This document shows, in pieces, positions 1,802-10,153 of a DNA stretch of 10,153 bases. Origin of the DNA: Leptospirales bacterium (lineage in GTDB: Bacteria; Spirochaetota; Leptospiria; Turneriellales; JAOUFE01); assembly GCA_040326155.1 (NCBI GenBank), contig JBEQLE010000106.1:1-10153 (forward strand). The letters are read 5' to 3'. The translations under genes and the position numbers were made by a program. The notes below the pieces were generated by a model that saw nothing but the letters and a program-made list of their open reading frames with translations, made no database searches and was not told where the DNA came from. Numbering within the stretch: the stretch's first letter is position 1; every line of letters starts with the position of its first letter.

Positions 1802-1822
1802 GAGTTTAGAAGCGTTGACTGC

Positions 1823-2006
1823 CGATAACAAATTTTAATCTGCTGCGCCCCGACTTCGCGGGTGCTCGGGTTTCGCTAGCGCTCAACCACATTTTGAGAC
1901 TACCTGAGCTTAACCGCCAAGCTCGCACGAAACTTGAGGTTAGTTTGGTGCTCGCTTGGCTGACTCCGGCAGTCTCAAAACATCAGATAAAATTGAAACG
2001 TCAAAT
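1823..2006 (+). mobile_element. attC-like site 1 (184 bp, branched; R' reads GTC instead of GTT)
   Basis: CGATAAC-AAATTTTAATCTG ... CAGATAAAATT-GAAAC-GTCAAAT. The arms pair with one extra base. Internal stems TTTTGAGACT (1892-1901)/AGTCTCAAAA (1971-1980) and GCCAAGC (1916-1922)/GCTTGGC (1954-1960). Confidence 0.8.
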
Positions 2007-2055
2007 GAAATAAGCGCGAATAACACCTGTAAAGTATATCATTATTAATAAATAT

Positions 2056-2084
2056 TTGTCACCATGTTTAAAGATATATACATT
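2056..2084 (+). promoter_or_regulatory. Putative sigma70 promoter of cassette 2
   Basis: TTGTCA (2056-2061), 17-bp spacer, TACATT (2079-2084). Confidence 0.45.
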
Positions 2085-2100
2085 ACCTCCTATCTGTAAT

Positions 2101-3054
2101 ATGAAAAGTTTAGAATGTATTATTTTCAATGTCGATCATGGTTTTTGTGCCTTCATCAAATCCCCAAACGATTATGGTCTTTTAATAGATGCTGGATCTA
2201 AAAATTTATTTTCCCCAGTAAAATACGTGAAAAATGCGTATCCAGGGGGTATATCATTTTTTGAAAAACGCCGTATTGCTGAGTTAATAATTACACATCT
2301 TCATGCAGACCATTTTTCCGATGTGGGAAATCTCAAAGATGCGCAAAAACCTAAACACCTATCTAGGGATAAATCTACATTGGCTCAAATGCGCAGTAAA
2401 ATCAAAAACGCAAAAAATGACGATAGTGGTATTAAGCTTCTGAAGGAATTTGATACTTTTCAAAAAGCATATGATAAGGATTCCGGTGATGAGCCTAATT
2501 GGGGTTTTGATTATTTTGATAAACGTCAAATTACGTACACTACAGCAAATAAAATCTCAGAAAGTGATGACAAGTTAATAAATAATAGAAGTTATATTAC
2601 AGTCATTGAATTTGCTGGTAAGCGAATTCTATTTCCCGGAGATATTGAAGTGGCGGGCTGGGATAAATTTCTTGGAAATGCAACCAATCAAAAGCATATC
2701 AATAATATTAACTTCTTTATTGCGTCGCACCATGGCCATAAATCTGGTTTTACGAAAAGTATTTTAGACTATACAGGTAAGCCAGATTTGTTTATTGTTT
2801 CGGCCAAAAGTGGCGATGAACATATAGATTCATCTTATTCAAATATCGAATATAGTAAAGGTTATCTTATCACAGATGATTCTAAAAAATCAAAAATGGT
2901 ATCAACAAGAGAAAAACAAAGTTCTATTAAAATCATTATTAATGAAGACGGTACGACATCTGTCAGTTACCTTGAAACAAAAAATAATTTAAATGAAAAC
3001 CAGGCTTTCAAGCGTGACCGTGCATTAAAACGCTACAAAAAAATATATCAGTGA
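2101..3054 (+). CDS. Metallo-beta-lactamase-fold hydrolase, ComEC/Rec2-like (probable nuclease or phosphodiesterase)
   Basis: 317 aa from ATG 2101. Motifs FNVDHG, LLIDAG, THLHADH (HxHxDH), ILFPGD and ASHHG. No signal peptide and no ComEC membrane domain. Confidence 0.88.
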   Translation: MKSLECIIFNVDHGFCAFIKSPNDYGLLIDAGSKNLFSPVKYVKNAYPGGISFFEKRRIAELIITHLHADHFSDVGNLKDAQKPKHLSRDKSTLAQMRSKIKNAKNDDSGIKLLKEFDTFQKAYDKDSGDEPNWGFDYFDKRQITYTTANKISESDDKLINNRSYITVIEFAGKRILFPGDIEVAGWDKFLGNATNQKHINNINFFIASHHGHKSGFTKSILDYTGKPDLFIVSAKSGDEHIDSSYSNIEYSKGYLITDDSKKSKMVSTREKQSSIKIIINEDGTTSVSYLETKNNLNENQAFKRDRALKRYKKIYQ

Positions 3055-3057
3055 ATT

Positions 3058-3510
3058 ATGAAAAAAATTATATTATATTTAGTGATTATCATAATCTCAT
3101 TATTAGCGGCTATCAAGTTTCGTGTTAACATTGGTACATTTTTCCATTATGAATTTAATGGTATTTTTAAATCTTTATTTTTTACTATATGGTCTGCTAC
3201 ACTAGGCTCAGTGTTTTATTGCCTACGCGCTGTTTATGAAAATAAATCTGTAAGAAAAAATTGGGATCCCGATTGGGAAGTATGGTATTATATTCGTCCT
3301 ATCACCGGTAGCATTATAGGTTTTGCTGTATGGTTGGCTATTAAATCAGGTTTGCTAATTTTATCTACCGACAGCAGTAATATCAATATTTGGGCTAGTT
3401 CCTTTTTGGGGTTTATCGCTGGTTTAAATGTTAAAAATATACAGTTATTGCTGGAAGAGATTATGCATAAAAAAGTGGGTTTATCAAAAAGCAACCAGTC
3501 AAAAAATTAG
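3058..3510 (+). CDS. Small integral membrane protein (~4 TM), hypothetical
   Basis: 150 aa, starting 3 nt after the MBL stop. Hydrophobic segments at about aa 4-20, 36-56, 77-102 and 110-124. LGS...WYYIRP..G..G..F.AG pattern. Confidence 0.85.
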   Translation: MKKIILYLVIIIISLLAAIKFRVNIGTFFHYEFNGIFKSLFFTIWSATLGSVFYCLRAVYENKSVRKNWDPDWEVWYYIRPITGSIIGFAVWLAIKSGLLILSTDSSNINIWASSFLGFIAGLNVKNIQLLLEEIMHKKVGLSKSNQSKN

Positions 3511-3520
3511 CACTTACTTC

Positions 3521-3757
3521 ATTTAACAAATTTTGGTCTGCTCAGGCGCGCCTTCGGGTCTCGCATCATATTTTACTTTAAATTGATATTCAAGTTTTAA
3601 GAGATAATAGATCTATTATTTTTTCGTAAATGCTCACCCGCAATTTGGGGTGTCTCGACTAATCCGCCAGAGCTCGCACCAAACTTGAGGTTTGTTTTGC
3701 GCTCGTCTAGTGGGTCGAGTCACCCCAAAACGTCAAGATAAAATTGCAACGTTATCT
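3521..3757 (+). mobile_element. attC-like site 2 (237 bp, branched)
   Basis: ATTTAAC (perfect RYYYAAC)-AAATTTTGGTCTG ... AAGATAAAATT-GCAAC-GTTATCT. Homologous to site 1. Stems TTTGGGGTG (3644-3652)/CACCCCAAA (3721-3729) and CTCGAC (3654-3659)/GTCGAG (3714-3719). Confidence 0.82.
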
Positions 3758-3835
3758 GAAAGATTGGGTGTAAATTCCTGTCTAATTTTCTGGTAACATG
3801 CGATTTTAATTTAATTTATTCTTTACGTGCAATTC

Positions 3836-3876: not shown

Positions 3877-4950
3877 ATGTCTCCCGATTTTAAAAAAGCT
3901 ACAATAGACGTTCTCTCCAAAAGAGCTGCATTTAAATGTTCAAATCCAGATTGTAGAGTTTCAACCGTTGGCCCCAATTCCGATAATAACAAATCTACTT
4001 CTATTGGTGAAGCAGCACATATTTATGGTGCTCGCGAAACTTCTAAAAGATACATTCCGGACCAAACTAATGTACTTAGATCAGACATAACAAATGCTAT
4101 TTGGTTATGTCGAAATTGCCATAAACTTATCGACACCGATGAAAATAGGTTTTCAGTTTCAACACTATTTGCCTGGCGGGAACATCACGAAAATTATATC
4201 CTCTCGGAGTTGGGTACGGCGACAGATAAAATCCATTTAGAAGAACAAACTGCATTATTATTACAATTTAAAGACCACTCGCCATTGATCCGAAGAATAG
4301 TGCTAGATCAGCCAGATGGTTGGGAGTGGCGTTTAACAGCAGAATTGATGCGCTACCTCAATAATCCACTTTTCCGTAAACTCGACGATTTGAATCAAGG
4401 TCTTTACATAAAAGCTCAAACACACCTTAACGATGAACATGTATTAGACTGGATTTTCAAACGATTGAATGAAGCTTCAAAAATGATTGAACCGTTTCAT
4501 GGCTTACTTGGTAAGTTAACAGAAAGTTTTGGCCCGCCTGGAAAGTCTGGTAGTGTGGAAGAAATATTCCACATTACTAATCTAATACGAGATCAAATCG
4601 AATATATGCTAAAATTCGAAGAGGTAATCCATTTTACAATTGTATCCTCAAAGTATGAAAATCTTTTAAGATTACTAAAAAACATGATTGGTTCTCAAGC
4701 TAAGAAACTTGCAAATATTCCAAAACAGCTTGATGAAGTGGTCGAAATTAGTCACCAGCGTATTGATGAAAAATTAGCAAAACCATTGCGCATAGAAAAT
4801 ATTATCGAATTTAGTGTACCCGAAAACTGGGAAGAGAATTTTGATCAGGAAATGAGGAAGGTACAGGGACGCCCAAGCAAGAAAGCTGAAAAATATAGTA
4901 AAATTTTTGCAATTATAATATTTATTCTGTTTCTTGTGTATGTATGTTAA
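3877..4950 (+). CDS. HNH endonuclease with an uncharacterised helical domain and a C-terminal TM anchor
   Basis: 357 aa. CSNPDC ... GEAAHI ... NAIWLCRNCHKLID in the N-terminal ~105 aa. C-terminus IFAIIIFILFLVYVC preceded by a basic stretch. Confidence 0.88.
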   Translation: MSPDFKKATIDVLSKRAAFKCSNPDCRVSTVGPNSDNNKSTSIGEAAHIYGARETSKRYIPDQTNVLRSDITNAIWLCRNCHKLIDTDENRFSVSTLFAWREHHENYILSELGTATDKIHLEEQTALLLQFKDHSPLIRRIVLDQPDGWEWRLTAELMRYLNNPLFRKLDDLNQGLYIKAQTHLNDEHVLDWIFKRLNEASKMIEPFHGLLGKLTESFGPPGKSGSVEEIFHITNLIRDQIEYMLKFEEVIHFTIVSSKYENLLRLLKNMIGSQAKKLANIPKQLDEVVEISHQRIDEKLAKPLRIENIIEFSVPENWEENFDQEMRKVQGRPSKKAEKYSKIFAIIIFILFLVYVC

Positions 4951-5101: not shown

Positions 5102-5599
5102 GTGCTTTTATTAAAAGTAATAAAATGGAAATTTACTCGCATCCTGAGGAAATGCGCTATTGTGCTAATTAAAACAATTCTTACTAATACGACTAAAAGC
5201 AAATTACGAAAAAACTTAATCAAAGCGGTGAAAAAGAATAAGAAACAAACTCTTTTTGGCTTTATCAAAGGTGATTATTTTGTTTTGCGAAAAAAGAAGT
5301 CAGAGAGCAATTTTCTATTTGTTCCATTTTTCATTGGAAAAATTGAACAAAATAAAAAGCTATATAAAGGCTGTGCATATATGAAAGGCTTCTTTTTTCT
5401 GAAACCAAAACCAGCCCTGCTTTATTATACTGCTATTCTTTATGCTATTGATATATACATCTTGACAAATCACATTTTATCCATTATCATGTTCTTCTTC
5501 CTGGCACTCTATATTATGTTTTCGTTTACCGGAAAATTACAAAAGCATGCTTTGATTCAAACTCTAATGGTTACAGGCATGGAATCTCATTCACGCTAA
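5102..5599 (+). CDS. Hypothetical Lys-rich protein with two C-terminal TM segments (start uncertain, possibly GTG 5162)
   Basis: 165-aa ORF in cassette orientation. Hydrophobic segments PALLYYTAILYAIDIYIL and ILSIIMFFFLALYIMFSF. Confidence 0.6.
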   Translation: MLLLKVIKWKFTRILRKCAIVLIKTILTNTTKSKLRKNLIKAVKKNKKQTLFGFIKGDYFVLRKKKSESNFLFVPFFIGKIEQNKKLYKGCAYMKGFFFLKPKPALLYYTAILYAIDIYILTNHILSIIMFFFLALYIMFSFTGKLQKHALIQTLMVTGMESHSR

Positions 5600-6086: not shown

Positions 6087-6638
6087 CTATTCTTTCAAGT
6101 AAATATTTAAACCATGCTCAGCATGACATCTGAACTTTTTATTAATTATTTTATTATCAATTGCAACACTACTGATAATAAACTCAGTACAGCCTACAAT
6201 GTTTTCTATTTCTTTATAAAAACTTTTTAAATTTTTTACGTCACTAAATAAATCAATTTCACTGCCAGTAAGCATTAATTGTATTCCATTATCTTGCATT
6301 GCGGTAAATAGATTTTTCAACTGTTTTTCTATACTAACTTGAGTTATATAAATGTGCCTAGGTAAACTAACAGTAACAATATAATAAAACTTTCCTTTAT
6401 GGCAAGAAAGACTACAATCATTAGCCATATAAGAAAATAAAATCTCTTGTCCATTGATTTTACTAAAATCAATATGGTTTAGTTGCACAACTTTACTCTG
6501 CTCAAATTTAGTATCAATTAATATACTCTCCCATATATCACTTAAACAAACAATATGATTTCTAATTAATTTTGCTAATCCTGAATAATTATCTGGTTTT
6601 CTATTTAAAACCATTACTGTGTTTATTTTCTCTGCCAT
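6087..6638 (-). CDS. Putative immunity protein for the RHS toxin
   Basis: 183 aa, very AT-rich, starts 5 nt after the toxin stop. This is the canonical immunity-gene position; no family recognised. Confidence 0.7.
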   Translation of the reverse strand: MAEKINTVMVLNRKPDNYSGLAKLIRNHIVCLSDIWESILIDTKFEQSKVVQLNHIDFSKINGQEILFSYMANDCSLSCHKGKFYYIVTVSLPRHIYITQVSIEKQLKNLFTAMQDNGIQLMLTGSEIDLFSDVKNLKSFYKEIENIVGCTEFIISSVAIDNKIINKKFRCHAEHGLNIYLKE

Positions 6639-6643
6639 ACGTA

Positions 6644-9600
6644 TTATTCTTTAGGGATATCCTTTATTTTATATAAACTTCTAAATTTTCCTTCAGCATC
6701 TAATCTTAGTAATGTGTCGCCAAGTCTGTAATGCGTTTCACCAGCGAATTCCTTTGCATCTTTCGCAAATCTAGTAATGATTGTTTTAGAATTTCGCATT
6801 ACATTTTTAGCAATCTGCATATATTTTTCAACTTCATGGGGTTTTAATCCAAATTCAGCCCAATGGCGACCAAGTTTAGTACCGACCTGCTTAGTTACAT
6901 TTGCAAATTTAAAAATATTATTGGCCTTAAACATTCCAGTTAAGCTTTGAACCCAACGTGGCATACCCGAAAAAATTCCACGCAAACTGCCTGTATTTTT
7001 TAGATTTTTGGCAACGACAACAACAGAGACTGCTACTACTGCAACGGTAGTTACACCTACCAAAATCTTTTGTGTTGTTGTAAGCTTTGTTGTTTCTTCC
7101 GGGCGGGGTTCATTAGCCCAAGACGGCCTTGCTTGCCTTCCATCTGGATCAATTAATTTTACTGGATTTACCCCAGCATAATGATACAGGTTTGCATTGA
7201 CGCTATTGAAAACCCCACCAGATCCTTTCAGACTTTTTGCATTAAAAGCTTTCTCAGGAAAATAAACCTGCTCTCCCTTCGGTAGATACTCCGATAGGGC
7301 AGGATCAGTTGACAACCAAACACCAACCTTCGGATCATAATACCTCGCGCCAAAGTAATAGTACCCGGTCTCCTCATCGAGTTCTTTTCCGGTAAATTTA
7401 TAACCCAGCACATCAAAGTTACTATTATCCTTCGCATCCTCAAACCAGATTTCACCAAACGGATAGTACAACGTGCGTTCATATTTCGCGCCATCTGCAT
7501 CCGTAATTAGACTTGTAGAACCGAGGTGGTCCGCATGGTAAAAATATATTACTTCGGCTTTCCCTTTGGTTGCACCAGAGCCACGCCCGCCGCCACCTTT
7601 GGTTGTGGTCTGGTTATTATTTTTGTTATTATTTCCATCACTCACTCGGCGATCTTCCACCGGTACGTCGTAATATCCATTAGCGACGGCTTTGCCTTGC
7701 GCTTTGGACGGACCTCTAACACCCTTATTATCTGTGTTTGCGTTGGTATTATATCGTCCATTGGCCGCATTCGTGTTGTTGCCGCCTTTGCCCTGGTTGC
7801 CTTTGGCTGTCCCTTGCGCTTCTTCGCAGTCTCGCTTTGCAAATCCTTTTAAATCTTGACATGGGTCTGTGGTGGATGTGGTATTTTTGCCTTTTCCTTT
7901 TCCCTTGTCAGCGTTTTTATCTTTGCCTTGACCTTTTCCCTTGCCTGCACTTTTTCCACGTTGTTTTCCTGTTGTTGTGGTTTGCGTGGTGTCGGCTTGG
8001 GTAGTTGTCTGGGAACTGTTTTGCGAGGTAGTTAAATCTTTACCTTTGCCGGTAATTGTTACGCCATCCATCCCAATATAATCATTTAAGGTTTGCGGCT
8101 GGTCGGCGACAGGTTCTGCTATAACTTTCATACGTTTTCCGACGGCTGTCACTCTGGTTGCTATTCTTATGCTTCCCGCATAGATATGGCTGGAACCAAC
8201 GTAGTCATCTGTTACGGTGTAGAACTGGTTTATGTATAAGGTCTCTCCGTTTGGTCCTTGTTTTCTGACTCTTTCGCCGCCTGCGTCATAGGTGAACTTT
8301 GTTATTCTGTTTTTCTGATCATTTACGGCTTGCAGTCTGTTTTCACTCGACCACGTCATGTCGCGCAGCTCTCCGGTTTGACCATTTTCTCTGTTTATCT
8401 GGTTTCCGTTTTCGTCGAATGTATAATACAAGGGCTCTTTTGCTTGTCGTGAATCAGTGTAAGTTATATCTACCTGGCTTATGGCATGTGGTTTTTCACC
8501 ATTGTAAGAGTATGCCATGTCGTAGTTTTGCATCGGGTCGTTCACGGCTTTTCCACTGGTCGAGGTTACGCTGAACCTTGCCATTTTGCGTGTCATGTTA
8601 TGAATTTTATCGTAGCCATATTCTCTGTTGTAAGTATACGATTTATATCCATTATTTACGTGGTATTTAAAGCTTCCGGTCGCTTTGGTTAGTCGATAAA
8701 GGTCGTCATACTCAAAGTCTTGTACTAAAGAGTCTTTTATATTATCTTTTATCGATAAGATGTTTCCTACTTTGTCGTATGTATAATTGATATCTTGTAT
8801 TTTCTCGCTGCCCGAAATGGTTTTTAAATTTGAGAGTCTTCTATTTAATGGATTGTACGCATAGGTTGTTTTTGCACCGTTTCCGAGTTCTAAATAATTG
8901 CGTTGCCCGTATTCATCGTAGCCGAGTTGTTCTAAATAGACTACGTTTTTATTGTCGCGCACAGATTCTACGTGTTGCAGTAATCCACCTTCGTCGTAAG
9001 TATAATCGAGTACCTCTCCGTCGGGGTATGTTATCTGTTTCATTCTTGCGAAGCTGTCGAATCTCATATGCGTTGAAAATCGCCCGGTCGTTCCGTCAAA
9101 AAGCGGTAGAATTTTATCGGTTCTTGTTGTCTCACCAAGTTTTCCGTAAAATAACTCTGTGGCTCCCGATTCGTCAACTATTTTTGTTATTCTACCAGCC
9201 CGATTGTCTTTTGTATCGTTCGGCGTTCCGTAGAAATATTCTACGTCGACTTCTCCTGCCGGGTAGTCGATTTTATTTAGTCTACTGTACTCATATACAT
9301 ATTGTATAGACTTCTTTTGCACCTTTAATTTTGCATCGACTTTTTCGATCAGATTACCCACAAGATCATATGTGAACTCTGTTCTACCCGCGTCGGGGTT
9401 GTCAATTGCCGTTCTTCTTCCCAGGGTGTCGTAATCGACTGTGGTTTTGTTTCCTTTTGCGTCTGTTACGGTGAGTATTTCCCCAATGGCGTTGTAGTCA
9501 TAATGTGTTTCTATTGCATTTGCGCCGTTGTATTCTCGTATCTTTTGTATTTTTCCATATATATCTGAATAGCTCTCTTTTTTATTCCCGTTTTGGTCGA

Positions 9601-10153
9601 CGACGATTGTTTTCATGGAACCGTTTTGTATGGAATATCCTGTTTGTGTTATGGACCCGTCCGGTGTTTGCACTTTGATCGTTCTTCCCATGTCGTCATA
9701 GGTCATTATCGCTGGATTTTTCATCGGGATTGTTGCCAGATAATTTACGGCTACGCCTGGTTCAAAGACAGGCTGACCTTGTCGGGTAACTCTTCCCATT
9801 TCGTCGAACTCTACTCTTCCCGTTGTCGTATAACCTAATACGGCTTGTCCGTTTTGATTTACTTCTGACTCTTTTTTTGTCTGGATGACTCTTCTTAATG
9901 AGTCTATAAATATTACTGTGTCTAAGGTCCTGGTTGTTTCGTAGTCTTCTCTATTTTTGGTTACGGCCCTTGCTGGTTTTTCTTCGGGGTAGTATTCCAT
10001 CGAGAGCGTTCCCAGGTTATCTGTTGCGGGGTCTAAATACGGGCCCCAGACTTTTTTCGTTCTTCCGAAGCTGTCGTATTTATAGTTTATAAAATTTCCG
10101 TTTAAATCTGTAACCCTGATCACTGTGCCTAGTTTATAGTCATACTCTGAAAG
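6644..10153 (-). CDS. RHS/YD-repeat polymorphic toxin, 5'-truncated by the window edge
   Basis: Many YDxxGR repeats. Core motifs YFYHADHLGS, YYPFGE, FTGKELDEETGYYYFGARYYDP and NPVKLIDPDGR. The frame stays open from 10123 to the window end (LSEYDYKLGT). Confidence 0.95.
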   Translation of the reverse strand, partial: LSEYDYKLGTVIRVTDLNGNFINYKYDSFGRTKKVWGPYLDPATDNLGTLSMEYYPEEKPARAVTKNREDYETTRTLDTVIFIDSLRRVIQTKKESEVNQNGQAVLGYTTTGRVEFDEMGRVTRQGQPVFEPGVAVNYLATIPMKNPAIMTYDDMGRTIKVQTPDGSITQTGYSIQNGSMKTIVVDQNGNKKESYSDIYGKIQKIREYNGANAIETHYDYNAIGEILTVTDAKGNKTTVDYDTLGRRTAIDNPDAGRTEFTYDLVGNLIEKVDAKLKVQKKSIQYVYEYSRLNKIDYPAGEVDVEYFYGTPNDTKDNRAGRITKIVDESGATELFYGKLGETTRTDKILPLFDGTTGRFSTHMRFDSFARMKQITYPDGEVLDYTYDEGGLLQHVESVRDNKNVVYLEQLGYDEYGQRNYLELGNGAKTTYAYNPLNRRLSNLKTISGSEKIQDINYTYDKVGNILSIKDNIKDSLVQDFEYDDLYRLTKATGSFKYHVNNGYKSYTYNREYGYDKIHNMTRKMARFSVTSTSGKAVNDPMQNYDMAYSYNGEKPHAISQVDITYTDSRQAKEPLYYTFDENGNQINRENGQTGELRDMTWSSENRLQAVNDQKNRITKFTYDAGGERVRKQGPNGETLYINQFYTVTDDYVGSSHIYAGSIRIATRVTAVGKRMKVIAEPVADQPQTLNDYIGMDGVTITGKGKDLTTSQNSSQTTTQADTTQTTTTGKQRGKSAGKGKGQGKDKNADKGKGKGKNTTSTTDPCQDLKGFAKRDCEEAQGTAKGNQGKGGNNTNAANGRYNTNANTDNKGVRGPSKAQGKAVANGYYDVPVEDRRVSDGNNNKNNNQTTTKGGGGRGSGATKGKAEVIYFYHADHLGSTSLITDADGAKYERTLYYPFGEIWFEDAKDNSNFDVLGYKFTGKELDEETGYYYFGARYYDPKVGVWLSTDPALSEYLPKGEQVYFPEKAFNAKSLKGSGGVFNSVNANLYHYAGVNPVKLIDPDGRQARPSWANEPRPEETTKLTTTQKILVGVTTVAVVAVSVVVVAKNLKNTGSLRGIFSGMPRWVQSLTGMFKANNIFKFANVTKQVGTKLGRHWAEFGLKPHEVEKYMQIAKNVMRNSKTIITRFAKDAKEFAGETHYRLGDTLLRLDAEGKFRSLYKIKDIPKE
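6647..7135 (-). other. C-terminal toxin region (163 aa) after DPDGR: hydrophobic helix plus colicin D/BECR-like RNase candidate
   Basis: ILVGVTTVAVVAVSVVVVA, then KLGRHWAEFG ... YMQIAKNV ... LLRLDAEGKFRSLY. Confidence 0.55.
7556..8149 (-). repeat. 198-aa low-complexity G/K/N/T/Q insert inside the RHS protein
   Basis: GKGKG, TTQ and NNN runs between IYAGSIRIATRV and EVIYFYHADHLGS. Confidence 0.8.

Follow-up and report, generated by a model that had tools for sequence, protein, structure and literature searches.

A ComEC-like metallo-beta-lactamase hydrolase and a four-helix membrane protein form a conserved two-gene pair related to 6A-MBL, with a candidate role in phage conflict, in a Leptospirales bacterium

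Contig JBEQLE010000106.1 of a Leptospirales bacterium (10,153 bases, analysed over its whole length and referred to below as the window) carries two adjacent genes on the + strand, one for a standalone ComEC-like metallo-beta-lactamase (MBL) hydrolase (2101..3054) and one for a small membrane protein with four predicted helices (3058..3510). The two proteins are a conserved functional pair, and their pairing is not a matter of chance. The kind of system to which they are related, that of the 6A-MBL operon, has been known since 2006; what is new is the two-gene form, with a membrane partner that lies outside existing models. The explanation that we favour, tentatively and at a little under an even chance, is that the pair is a self-contained, horizontally moving conflict module, most likely directed against phages, in which a cytoplasmic MBL DNase would be held or licensed by its membrane partner.

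Both genes are intact. The MBL open reading frame (ORF), 2056..3054 (+), contains an in-frame ATG at 2101, and homologues of many phyla begin at the corresponding residue of the alignment; translation from this codon gives a protein of 317 aa. The stop codon TGA occupies 3052-3054 and is separated by a spacer of 3 nt from the ATG at 3058 that opens the membrane-protein ORF (3058..3510, +), which encodes 150 aa. The original prediction, which rested on the sequence alone, had described an intact metal-binding MBL fold of the standalone ComEC-like type and a four-transmembrane protein, encoded 3 nt apart with no competence genes nearby. That description is accurate: both genes are real, the metal site is complete, the structural and profile searches described below place ComEC first, no channel domain is present, and the window holds no competence gene.

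The hydrolase has 103 relatives at E<=0.001, the best of which, other than itself, is 60% identical (E 7.5e-120), and it matches the Lactamase_B model at E 1.6e-8. Its metal site consists of the motif H66-L-H68-A-D70-H71 (2296..2313, +), the bridging aspartate of G180-D181 (2638..2643, +), and H210-H211 of the motif H210-H211-G212-H213 (SHHGH; 2728..2739, +). In an alignment of 51 sequences D30, D70, H71, N161, N162, S164, G180, D181, H210, H211, and G212 are invariant, and H13, H66, and H68 are at least 90% conserved. Across a wider set of 68 MBLs of all architectures the first motif varies as H/N-x-H/D/E-x-D-H; G180-D181 is again invariant, and D70, H71, D181, H210, and H211 are kept in 68/68 sequences. 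The AlphaFold2 model (predicted local distance difference test score, pLDDT, 92.5; predicted template-modelling score, pTM, 0.91) includes a helical insert at about residues 89-135. The closest solved fold is the beta-lactamase-like domain of ComEC (9ic4; Foldseek E 8.4e-13, TM 0.62/0.73), followed by the phosphorylcholine esterase Pce and then by RNase Z, RNase J, and CPSF73. ComEC/Rec2 also ranks first in a profile search of PDB sequences (E 4.6e-9), and the motifs NNxS, GD, and HHG are common to both. The window enzyme differs from ComEC/Rec2 in standing alone, without the OB domain or the Competence channel domain (PF03772); the neighbouring membrane protein has no Pfam Competence match, and the genome has a canonical ComEC of its own elsewhere (PF03772 match on contig C104). 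Because the hydrolase has no hydrophobic segment, and neither a signal peptide nor a transmembrane segment, it is taken to be cytoplasmic.

Among PADLOC models the hydrolase matches PDC-M48B best (PDLC04675, E 5.8e-31, 105.8 bits, residues 2-265 of 317; PDLC04674, E 4.4e-23), with weaker matches to RTasMBL of DRT (1.3e-9), LmuA of Lamassu (2.7e-9), and Avs1a of AVAST type 1 (5.7e-6). Its C-terminus reads ...KRYKKIYQ. The MBLs of operons with E2-E1(-JAB) conjugation genes, described below, mostly end in ...WG, ...GHG, ...SYA, ...DYA, or ...RYA; at locus L087 the called MBL ORF continues beyond a WG. Each MBL clade (loci L054-L133) was seen to have a conserved tail of its own: in the E2-E1 operons the last residue is mostly Gly or Ala, an acidic P-L-x-F/Y-x-E-E-x-E tail characterises one two-gene clade and a G-Y-Y-Y-I/L-G-T-L-like tail another, and the clade of the window has a basic helix. 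These clade-specific tails may be peptides that serve in docking or regulation.

The search with the membrane protein gave 173 relatives at E<=0.001, the best of them, itself excluded, being 43% identical (E 3.8e-27), and an exhaustive HMMER profile search recovered 225 cluster representatives of the family at E<=1e-10 among 1.84 billion. In the AlphaFold2 model (pLDDT 84.5) helices span residues 2-24, 35-65, 71-96, and 107-123, and are followed by an amphipathic helix at 125-140. Of the four hydropathy peaks, near residues 3, 41, 84, and 114, two are strong and two moderate, and only two pass the strict Kyte-Doolittle threshold of 1.6; model and hydropathy thus agree with the four membrane segments of the original prediction. 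Nine columns (Y54, R57, Y60, W69, W73, W76, Y77, R80, P81) are invariant in 71 sequences, all within the best-conserved stretch of the protein, Y54...P81 (YCLRAVY-N--VRK-WD--W--WYYIRP; 3217..3300, +). Positive charges cluster at the N-terminus, at the turn between helices 2 and 3, and in the C-terminal tail. The positive-inside rule, applied to these clusters, predicts an N-in, C-in topology that would place the Y54...P81 motif and the conserved C-terminal helix on the cytoplasmic face.

No model of Pfam, NCBIfam, or PADLOC matches the membrane protein, for whose family no literature search by name was made. Foldseek against the PDB gave nothing at E<=0.001, the best hit of a wide fold search with VIA-align (Z 8.0, to helices of a G-protein-coupled receptor) is within the helical-bundle background, and the ESM Atlas returned unnamed clusters only. 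Longer forms of the family are rare (P0246, P0306, P0334, P0352, P0364, P0368, P0293): a word-index search for longer, fused relatives gave none at E<=0.001, and the exhaustive HMMER search later gave a few. In P0246 the four helices are joined to a putative trypsin-like protease domain, which has a GDSG motif and is weakly similar to a membrane-associated serine protease (E 0.035), and P0306, P0334, and P0352 are tandem duplications with 8 helices. Two more of the longer forms have beta-rich extensions at the C-terminus, and one is a truncated copy attached to part of a phage integrase. One member of the family weakly matches the Pycsar PycTM model (E 0.0039).

The linkage of the two families was evident when metagenomes were scanned with the membrane family, which gave 80 loci, in 75 of which the membrane ORF could be called. 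In these 75 loci 59 ORFs match a profile built from the MBL clade of the window. Dereplication at 90% identity left 57 loci. An MBL adjoins the membrane protein, in either gene order, in 35 of the 57; in another 10 the MBL and membrane protein are accompanied by an E2-E1(-JAB) gene, and in one the MBL lies 575 nt away. The remaining 11 have no visible partner, and all of them have a flank shorter than 1200 nt on at least one side; an MBL is present in every dereplicated locus with two long flanks. The co-occurrence check that the original prediction called for thus came out in favour of the pair, with an MBL adjacent or in the same operon in 46/57 loci and the other 11 truncated at one flank. 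Most frequent is the two-gene form, found in 35 of the 46 informative loci. The closest relative, L012, carries both genes in the order of the window, 57% and 55% identical. Where three genes are present, the middle one encodes Prok-E2_A or Prok-E2_B, ThiF, and Prok-JAB domains and matches the PADLOC CBASS E1-E2 and JAB models. One metagenome locus (L094) was found to hold two MBL systems in a row, in the order divergent MBL (429 aa), E2-E1-JAB, patatin-like phospholipase, and, directly after these, the membrane protein with a second MBL.

In a viral collection an MBL or E2-E1 gene lies beside the membrane gene in 5/5 loci. A plasmid collection yielded 180 records with the membrane family (Klebsiella 125, Escherichia 27), 113 of them conjugative. 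On E. coli pSE11-2 (L160) and a V. parahaemolyticus plasmid (L162) the MBL and E2-E1-JAB genes are on one strand and face a WYL gene and the membrane-protein gene on the other. This four-gene locus adjoins umuD and tyrosine recombinases on conjugative plasmids. One Klebsiella plasmid has kept only the WYL and membrane-protein genes, beside IS5 copies, with no MBL or E2-E1 gene detectable in 12 kb; another has small ORF fragments at the expected position of the MBL and an intact WYL and membrane gene (L158, L161). We read these Klebsiella loci without MBL and E2-E1 as cases of decay.

Seen from the hydrolase, the association is with a type of partner and not with one family. An MBL scan with one genome per species gave 43 loci, and hand-picked neighbours were examined in 35 of these. 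The membrane family of the window adjoins the MBL in only 3/43 (L012, L018, L020). Nevertheless, 22 of the 35 examined loci, and 15 of the 17 with the best MBL scores, have next to the MBL and on its strand an ORF with two or more hydrophobic segments; among the latter the exceptions are L023 and L016, whose contig stops at the MBL. The alternative partners are mostly proteins of 210-260 aa with two helices at each end, and a comparison of the window's membrane family with this partner family gave no sign of homology (hhalign probability 0.5%). In this alternative partner family a Csx27 model is matched in 3 of 30 neighbours scanned (best E 2.2e-13), and 1/16 of the 210-260-aa partners weakly matches PDC-M48A (E 7.1e-5). 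In a quick maximum-likelihood tree of the MBLs, with SH-aLRT support only, the window's enzyme falls in a well-supported clade of 8 rows, five with the other partner type, two with the window's type (the window and L012), and one cut off; the nearest MBLs come from five other phyla. Since close MBL relatives carry an unrelated membrane partner, the rule is an MBL with a small multi-pass membrane protein, and the membrane module is exchangeable. Copies of the membrane protein in three loci with E2-E1 operons are 39-41% identical to that of the window, and the MBLs of these loci share only 15-17% identity with the window's. The Mantel correlation of MBL and membrane protein is r 0.19, a value reached in 0/2000 permutations.

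With regard to named systems, the closest comparison is with operon type 6a, which was defined as a triple-module E2-E1-JAB protein encoded beside a specialised MBL; it is a two-gene operon, and the accessible part of the description has no mention of a membrane protein (Iyer, Burroughs & Aravind 2006, PMC1779556). A review credits van den Berg et al. 2024 with the anti-phage activity of 6A-MBL (PMC13276650, in the part available), and an excerpt of a preprint has 6A-MBL among jumbo-phage defences (10.1101/2025.09.30.679545). According to the available portion of another source, type II CBASS, Pycsar, and MBL pathways conjugate 'their respective signaling enzymes', and WYL regulators are CapW/BrxR-type regulators of immune operons (PMC11601596). 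The window pair resembles 6A-MBL in that the same kind of MBL and the same four-helix family occur together with E2-E1(-JAB) in 10 of the 46 informative loci, in that the profile of the window's MBL clade picks up, in most loci, the MBLs linked to E2-E1 (E<1e-3), and in that both are sparse and mobile. It differs in having no E2-E1-JAB domain in any window ORF, in an MBL that ends in ...KKIYQ and not in the Gly or Ala of most E2-E1-operon MBLs whose tails were listed, and in an MBL that belongs to the other of the two major clades of the quick tree; the four-helix protein seen here beside 6A-MBL is, moreover, not part of the 2006 definition. Searches of the 94.7%-complete assembly with Prok-E2_A and with one E2-E1-JAB protein, both run without a positive control, found no E2-E1-JAB gene, and the single Prok-JAB match in the genome is on another contig. 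Since E2-E1-JAB is missing from the window and none was found in the assembly, we read the pair as best filed as a minimal, 'type I-like' variant of the 6A-MBL or type II MBL kind, and not as 6A-MBL proper.

PADLOC's untested candidate system PDC-M48 is a partial counterpart. The window MBL corresponds to its component B, and MBLs beside the same membrane family match other PDC-M48B models at up to E 1.9e-171. Component A has no counterpart here: the window membrane protein does not match PDC-M48A (E limit 0.1), nor do any of 71 family members scanned or of 17 further members from the loci (E limit 1). The name PDC-M48 was not found in a literature search. The original prediction had presented the pair as a candidate new system, not recognised as a named one, which does not hold, because the MBL matches PDC-M48B and both families are parts of the 6A-MBL or type II MBL operon. 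A match of the pair to a PADLOC model, which would have counted against novelty, was found for the MBL and not for the membrane protein, to which no PADLOC model corresponds.

A further comparison is with nuclease-protease pairs. The MBLs of AVAST type 1, Hachiman (HamMAB), Lamassu, DRT, and Canu are described as competence-nuclease-like DNases that are released by a partner, and in the published pairs the protease is located on the sensor protein (PMC12799240, accessible part). ComEC-like MBLs have likewise been recruited into defence there, and the window MBL matches the RTasMBL, LmuA, and Avs1a models; here, the partner is a membrane protein, and no protease family is found in any window ORF. 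The suggestion of an Apyc1-type cyclic-nucleotide phosphodiesterase in the original prediction gained no support, the nearest structures and the nearest characterised defence MBLs being DNases. Small multi-pass membrane proteins encoded beside a cytoplasmic enzyme are familiar from Kiwa (KwaA/KwaB) and from the transmembrane effectors of CBASS and Pycsar. The logic of the layout is alike in these and in Csx27 of type VI-B CRISPR, and there is no relation in sequence or fold to the window membrane protein.

What points to a defence role is the company that the two families keep. Related loci carry E2-E1-JAB (Cap2/Cap3-like) genes and WYL regulators and are found on conjugative plasmids and on viral or prophage-like contigs. 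Direct neighbours in some loci include short and long prokaryotic Argonautes (pAgo), a complete type I restriction-modification system, a type XI retron reverse transcriptase, and a TIR protein, and a helix-turn-helix (HTH)-M78 peptidase gene lies 5' of one two-gene locus. The distribution is patchy: the MBL was absent from the 60 relatives searched. When the neighbours were compared with 119 control ORFs, taken from ten regions picked arbitrarily in the genome of the window, PADLOC matches at E<=1e-10 were found in 18/143 neighbours and 16/119 control ORFs, a null result for enrichment. At E<=1e-90 there were 6 matches among neighbours and 0 in the control, a threshold picked post hoc. Because the enrichment is null and the window's own neighbours are not conserved beside the pair, the defence role is a candidate one. 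The conflict-system idea of the original prediction keeps the support of context elsewhere (E2-E1-JAB, WYL, plasmids, prophage-like contigs) and finds none in neighbour enrichment.

Under the explanation that we favour, the cytoplasmic MBL would be a metal-dependent DNase and the four-helix protein its dedicated membrane partner, which would hold or license the nuclease at the inner membrane. Coupling would run through the conserved cytoplasm-facing loop and the C-terminal helix of the membrane protein, so that DNA would be cut when and where an infection-linked membrane event happens, in parallel to ComEC, whose MBL domain processes DNA at the membrane. The family would be built on a ComEC-type MBL hydrolase and a small inner-membrane partner, with the window pair as the minimal form and an expanded form, 6A-MBL or the 'type II MBL pathway', that adds an E2-E1-JAB conjugation enzyme and often a WYL regulator. 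DNA is the proposed substrate because the fold is that of ComEC, because the PADLOC matches include the MBLs of DRT, Lamassu, and Avs1, a class of DNases, and because the catalytic columns are kept in 68/68 relatives. That the membrane protein may be the controlling or sensing part is suggested by the swapping of membrane partners among close MBL relatives, and a sensor role in particular by the protease-like fusion in P0246, given that the protease is on the sensor in published pairs. The two proteins would touch; complex prediction, with both supplied as alignments, gave a score of 0.00, no verdict either way.

Several observations weigh against this explanation. The window has no protease that could activate the MBL as in nuclease-protease pairs, the P0246 fusion is a weak match seen as protein only, and the NCBIfam Avs1a equivalog scores 34.2 bits against a cut-off of 420 and covers only MBL residues 147-243. 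The membrane protein is much better conserved than the MBL, and it is usually effectors, not sensors, that behave so. The null result for defence genes among the neighbours counts here as well, and we know of no phenotype for the MBL and membrane-protein pair. The MBLs of the E2-E1 operons, furthermore, end in Gly or Ala, and since such a tail marks the conjugated signalling enzyme in CBASS-like pathways, the MBL may act upstream and not as the end effector (PMC11601596, available portion).

This last point leads to a wiring opposite to the one just described, which is possible, if doubtful: the MBL would be an upstream sensing or signal-producing enzyme, and the four-helix protein a terminal effector that oligomerises, damages the inner membrane, and aborts the infection. 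The MBL would then be the counterpart of the cyclase in CBASS and Pycsar, and the window a 'type I' form without E2-E1-JAB priming. The Gly or Ala C-termini of MBLs in E2-E1(-JAB) operons fit a Cap2-type substrate, in line with the wording 'signaling enzymes' for conjugated MBLs in the available portion of PMC11601596. The membrane protein is, in addition, the conserved and shuffled part of the system, at about 40% identity where MBLs share 15-17%, and is exchanged for an unrelated multi-transmembrane protein among close MBL relatives, as effectors are; on the plasmids its gene is transcribed with WYL, apart from the MBL and E2-E1-JAB genes. The tandem 8-helix forms P0306, P0334, and P0352 suggest an oligomeric membrane assembly, and the single weak PycTM match (E 0.0039) points the same way. 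On the other hand, the membrane protein has about 40 cytoplasm-facing residues and no recognisable ligand-binding domain, its family is seen with MBL systems alone, unlike CBASS and Pycsar effectors, and, to our knowledge, no MBL-fold enzyme produces a second messenger. The nearest characterised defence MBLs, moreover, are DNase effectors (PMC12799240, accessible part). An unlikely extension of the same idea is an autonomous immune pathway without E2-E1-JAB, in which the MBL would be an infection-sensing signal producer that opens a dedicated membrane effector of unseen fold, either by releasing a nucleic-acid-derived product or by direct docking. If this were true, MBL hydrolases would join CD-NTases and Pycsar cyclases as a third class of 'signalling enzyme', of which the window would be the type I and 6A-MBL the type II form.

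A function outside immunity is improbable. The pair could in principle be a membrane-associated phosphoesterase module, for example an accessory DNA-uptake nuclease or a phosphodiesterase of the head-group or teichoic-acid type with a membrane anchor, and this would agree with the rank of the pneumococcal phosphorylcholine esterase Pce/CbpE directly after ComEC in fold and profile matches, with the label 'competence protein ComEC' that some homologues bear in source databases, and with the lack of an excess of defence models among the neighbours. The genome already has a canonical ComEC, however, the MBL has no signal peptide or transmembrane segment, and the absence from the 60 relatives searched does not suit a housekeeping role of this kind. 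Both families are also found repeatedly beside E2-E1-JAB and WYL genes, as well as on conjugative plasmids and viral contigs, and some loci adjoin pAgo, type I restriction-modification, retron, or TIR genes. Least probable of all is that the window holds the remnant of a 6A-MBL locus stripped of its E2-E1-JAB and WYL genes and no longer working. Such decay is visible on the Klebsiella plasmids, and the window pair does lie among repeats on a short contig, but both of its genes are full length with all conserved residues present, its MBL clade has a C-terminus of its own and not a truncated Gly/Ala tail, and the two-gene form is both the commonest (35/46) and the one that L012 shares in the same order at 57% and 55% identity.

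The window is the whole of contig C7 in a 4.26 Mb assembly of 171 contigs. On its + strand the pair stands between a ParA-like ATPase gene (530-1582) and an HNH protein gene (3877-4950), and the - strand carries a small ORF (6087-6638) and a YD/Rhs-repeat protein gene that extends past the contig end. On either side of the pair lies a copy of a dispersed intergenic repeat that forms a hairpin. The upstream copy (1811..2010) comprises the direct-repeat families D3, D4, and D11 and aligns with the downstream copy (3509..3761; own-genome match 3664-3761). The repeat is modular, about 200-250 nt long, and folds stably in both copies (1841-1985, -60.9 kcal/mol, z -5.15; 3615-3740, -46.3 kcal/mol, z -4.98). 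It has 47 matches in its own genome, on many contigs and both strands and often close to contig ends, and occurs also at 300-420 of the window and on contigs C106, C41, and C161 (L139-L141). On contig C106 three copies about 1.8 kb apart separate single genes 3' of a tyrosine recombinase that is below the integron-integrase cut-off. No Rfam family was found in the window at gathering scores. The element could be of the miniature inverted-repeat transposable element (MITE) or repetitive extragenic palindromic (REP) type, or the boundary of a cassette-like unit. An integron gene cassette was considered and rejected: the best TIGR02249 score, 102.7 bits, falls short of the cut-off of 265 and is at the level of control genomes, and the flanking repeat is present 47 times on both strands. 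Of the cassette in the original prediction there remains the bracketing by two repeat copies, without the integron. For the promoter that it had placed in the same unit there is one weak match (TTGTCA-17-TACATT; 2056..2084, +), which lies just 5' of the MBL start and agrees with 9/12 consensus positions. The region is AT-rich and yields 19 such matches against 11.4 +/- 3.7 in shuffles, so the match is no evidence of function.

The other genes of the window are not counted as parts of the system, because the ParA-like and HNH proteins and those of ORFs 5102-5599 and 6087-6638 have no tblastn match in the related loci that were searched, namely L011-L133 together with viral and plasmid loci numbered L153 and higher. 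The ParA/AAA_31-type ATPase (530-1582, +, 350 aa) is an orphan without a ParB-like neighbour, and a terminator-like hairpin lies at 1771-1796. In the HNH protein (3877-4950, +, 357 aa) the HNH domain is N-terminal and matches PADLOC PDC-M68A (E 3.9e-24) as well as the HNH portion of CBASS and SAVED-HNH effectors, and a hydrophobic helix lies at the C-terminus (339-357); the protein looks like a separate single-gene defence candidate. The YD/Rhs-repeat protein (6644-10153, -) has a long low-complexity insert rich in Lys, Gly, Thr, and Asn, a short hydrophobic segment, and, at the C-terminus, a domain that belongs to no family. GC content is 43-48% over part of its gene (about 7000-8500) and about 30% around it. 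The 183-aa ORF that comes after it (6087-6638, -) has no family either and may be an immunity gene.

MBL-centred operons with E2-E1-JAB are grouped with type II CBASS and Pycsar among the bacterial relatives of ubiquitin-type signalling. To this can be added a small membrane protein, without a database family, that is the constant companion of 6A-MBL-type MBLs, in a system whose commonest form has two genes and whose membrane partner is exchangeable. With just two genes, the system offers the simplest way to decide between a DNase effector and an upstream enzyme in the case of the MBL, and between sensing and killing in that of the membrane protein. Should the pair function by itself, defence-finding tools whose models cover the MBL alone (PADLOC PDC-M48B), or the E2-E1-JAB form alone, would overlook or misrepresent a widespread system, including the copies carried on conjugative plasmids of Klebsiella and E. 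coli.

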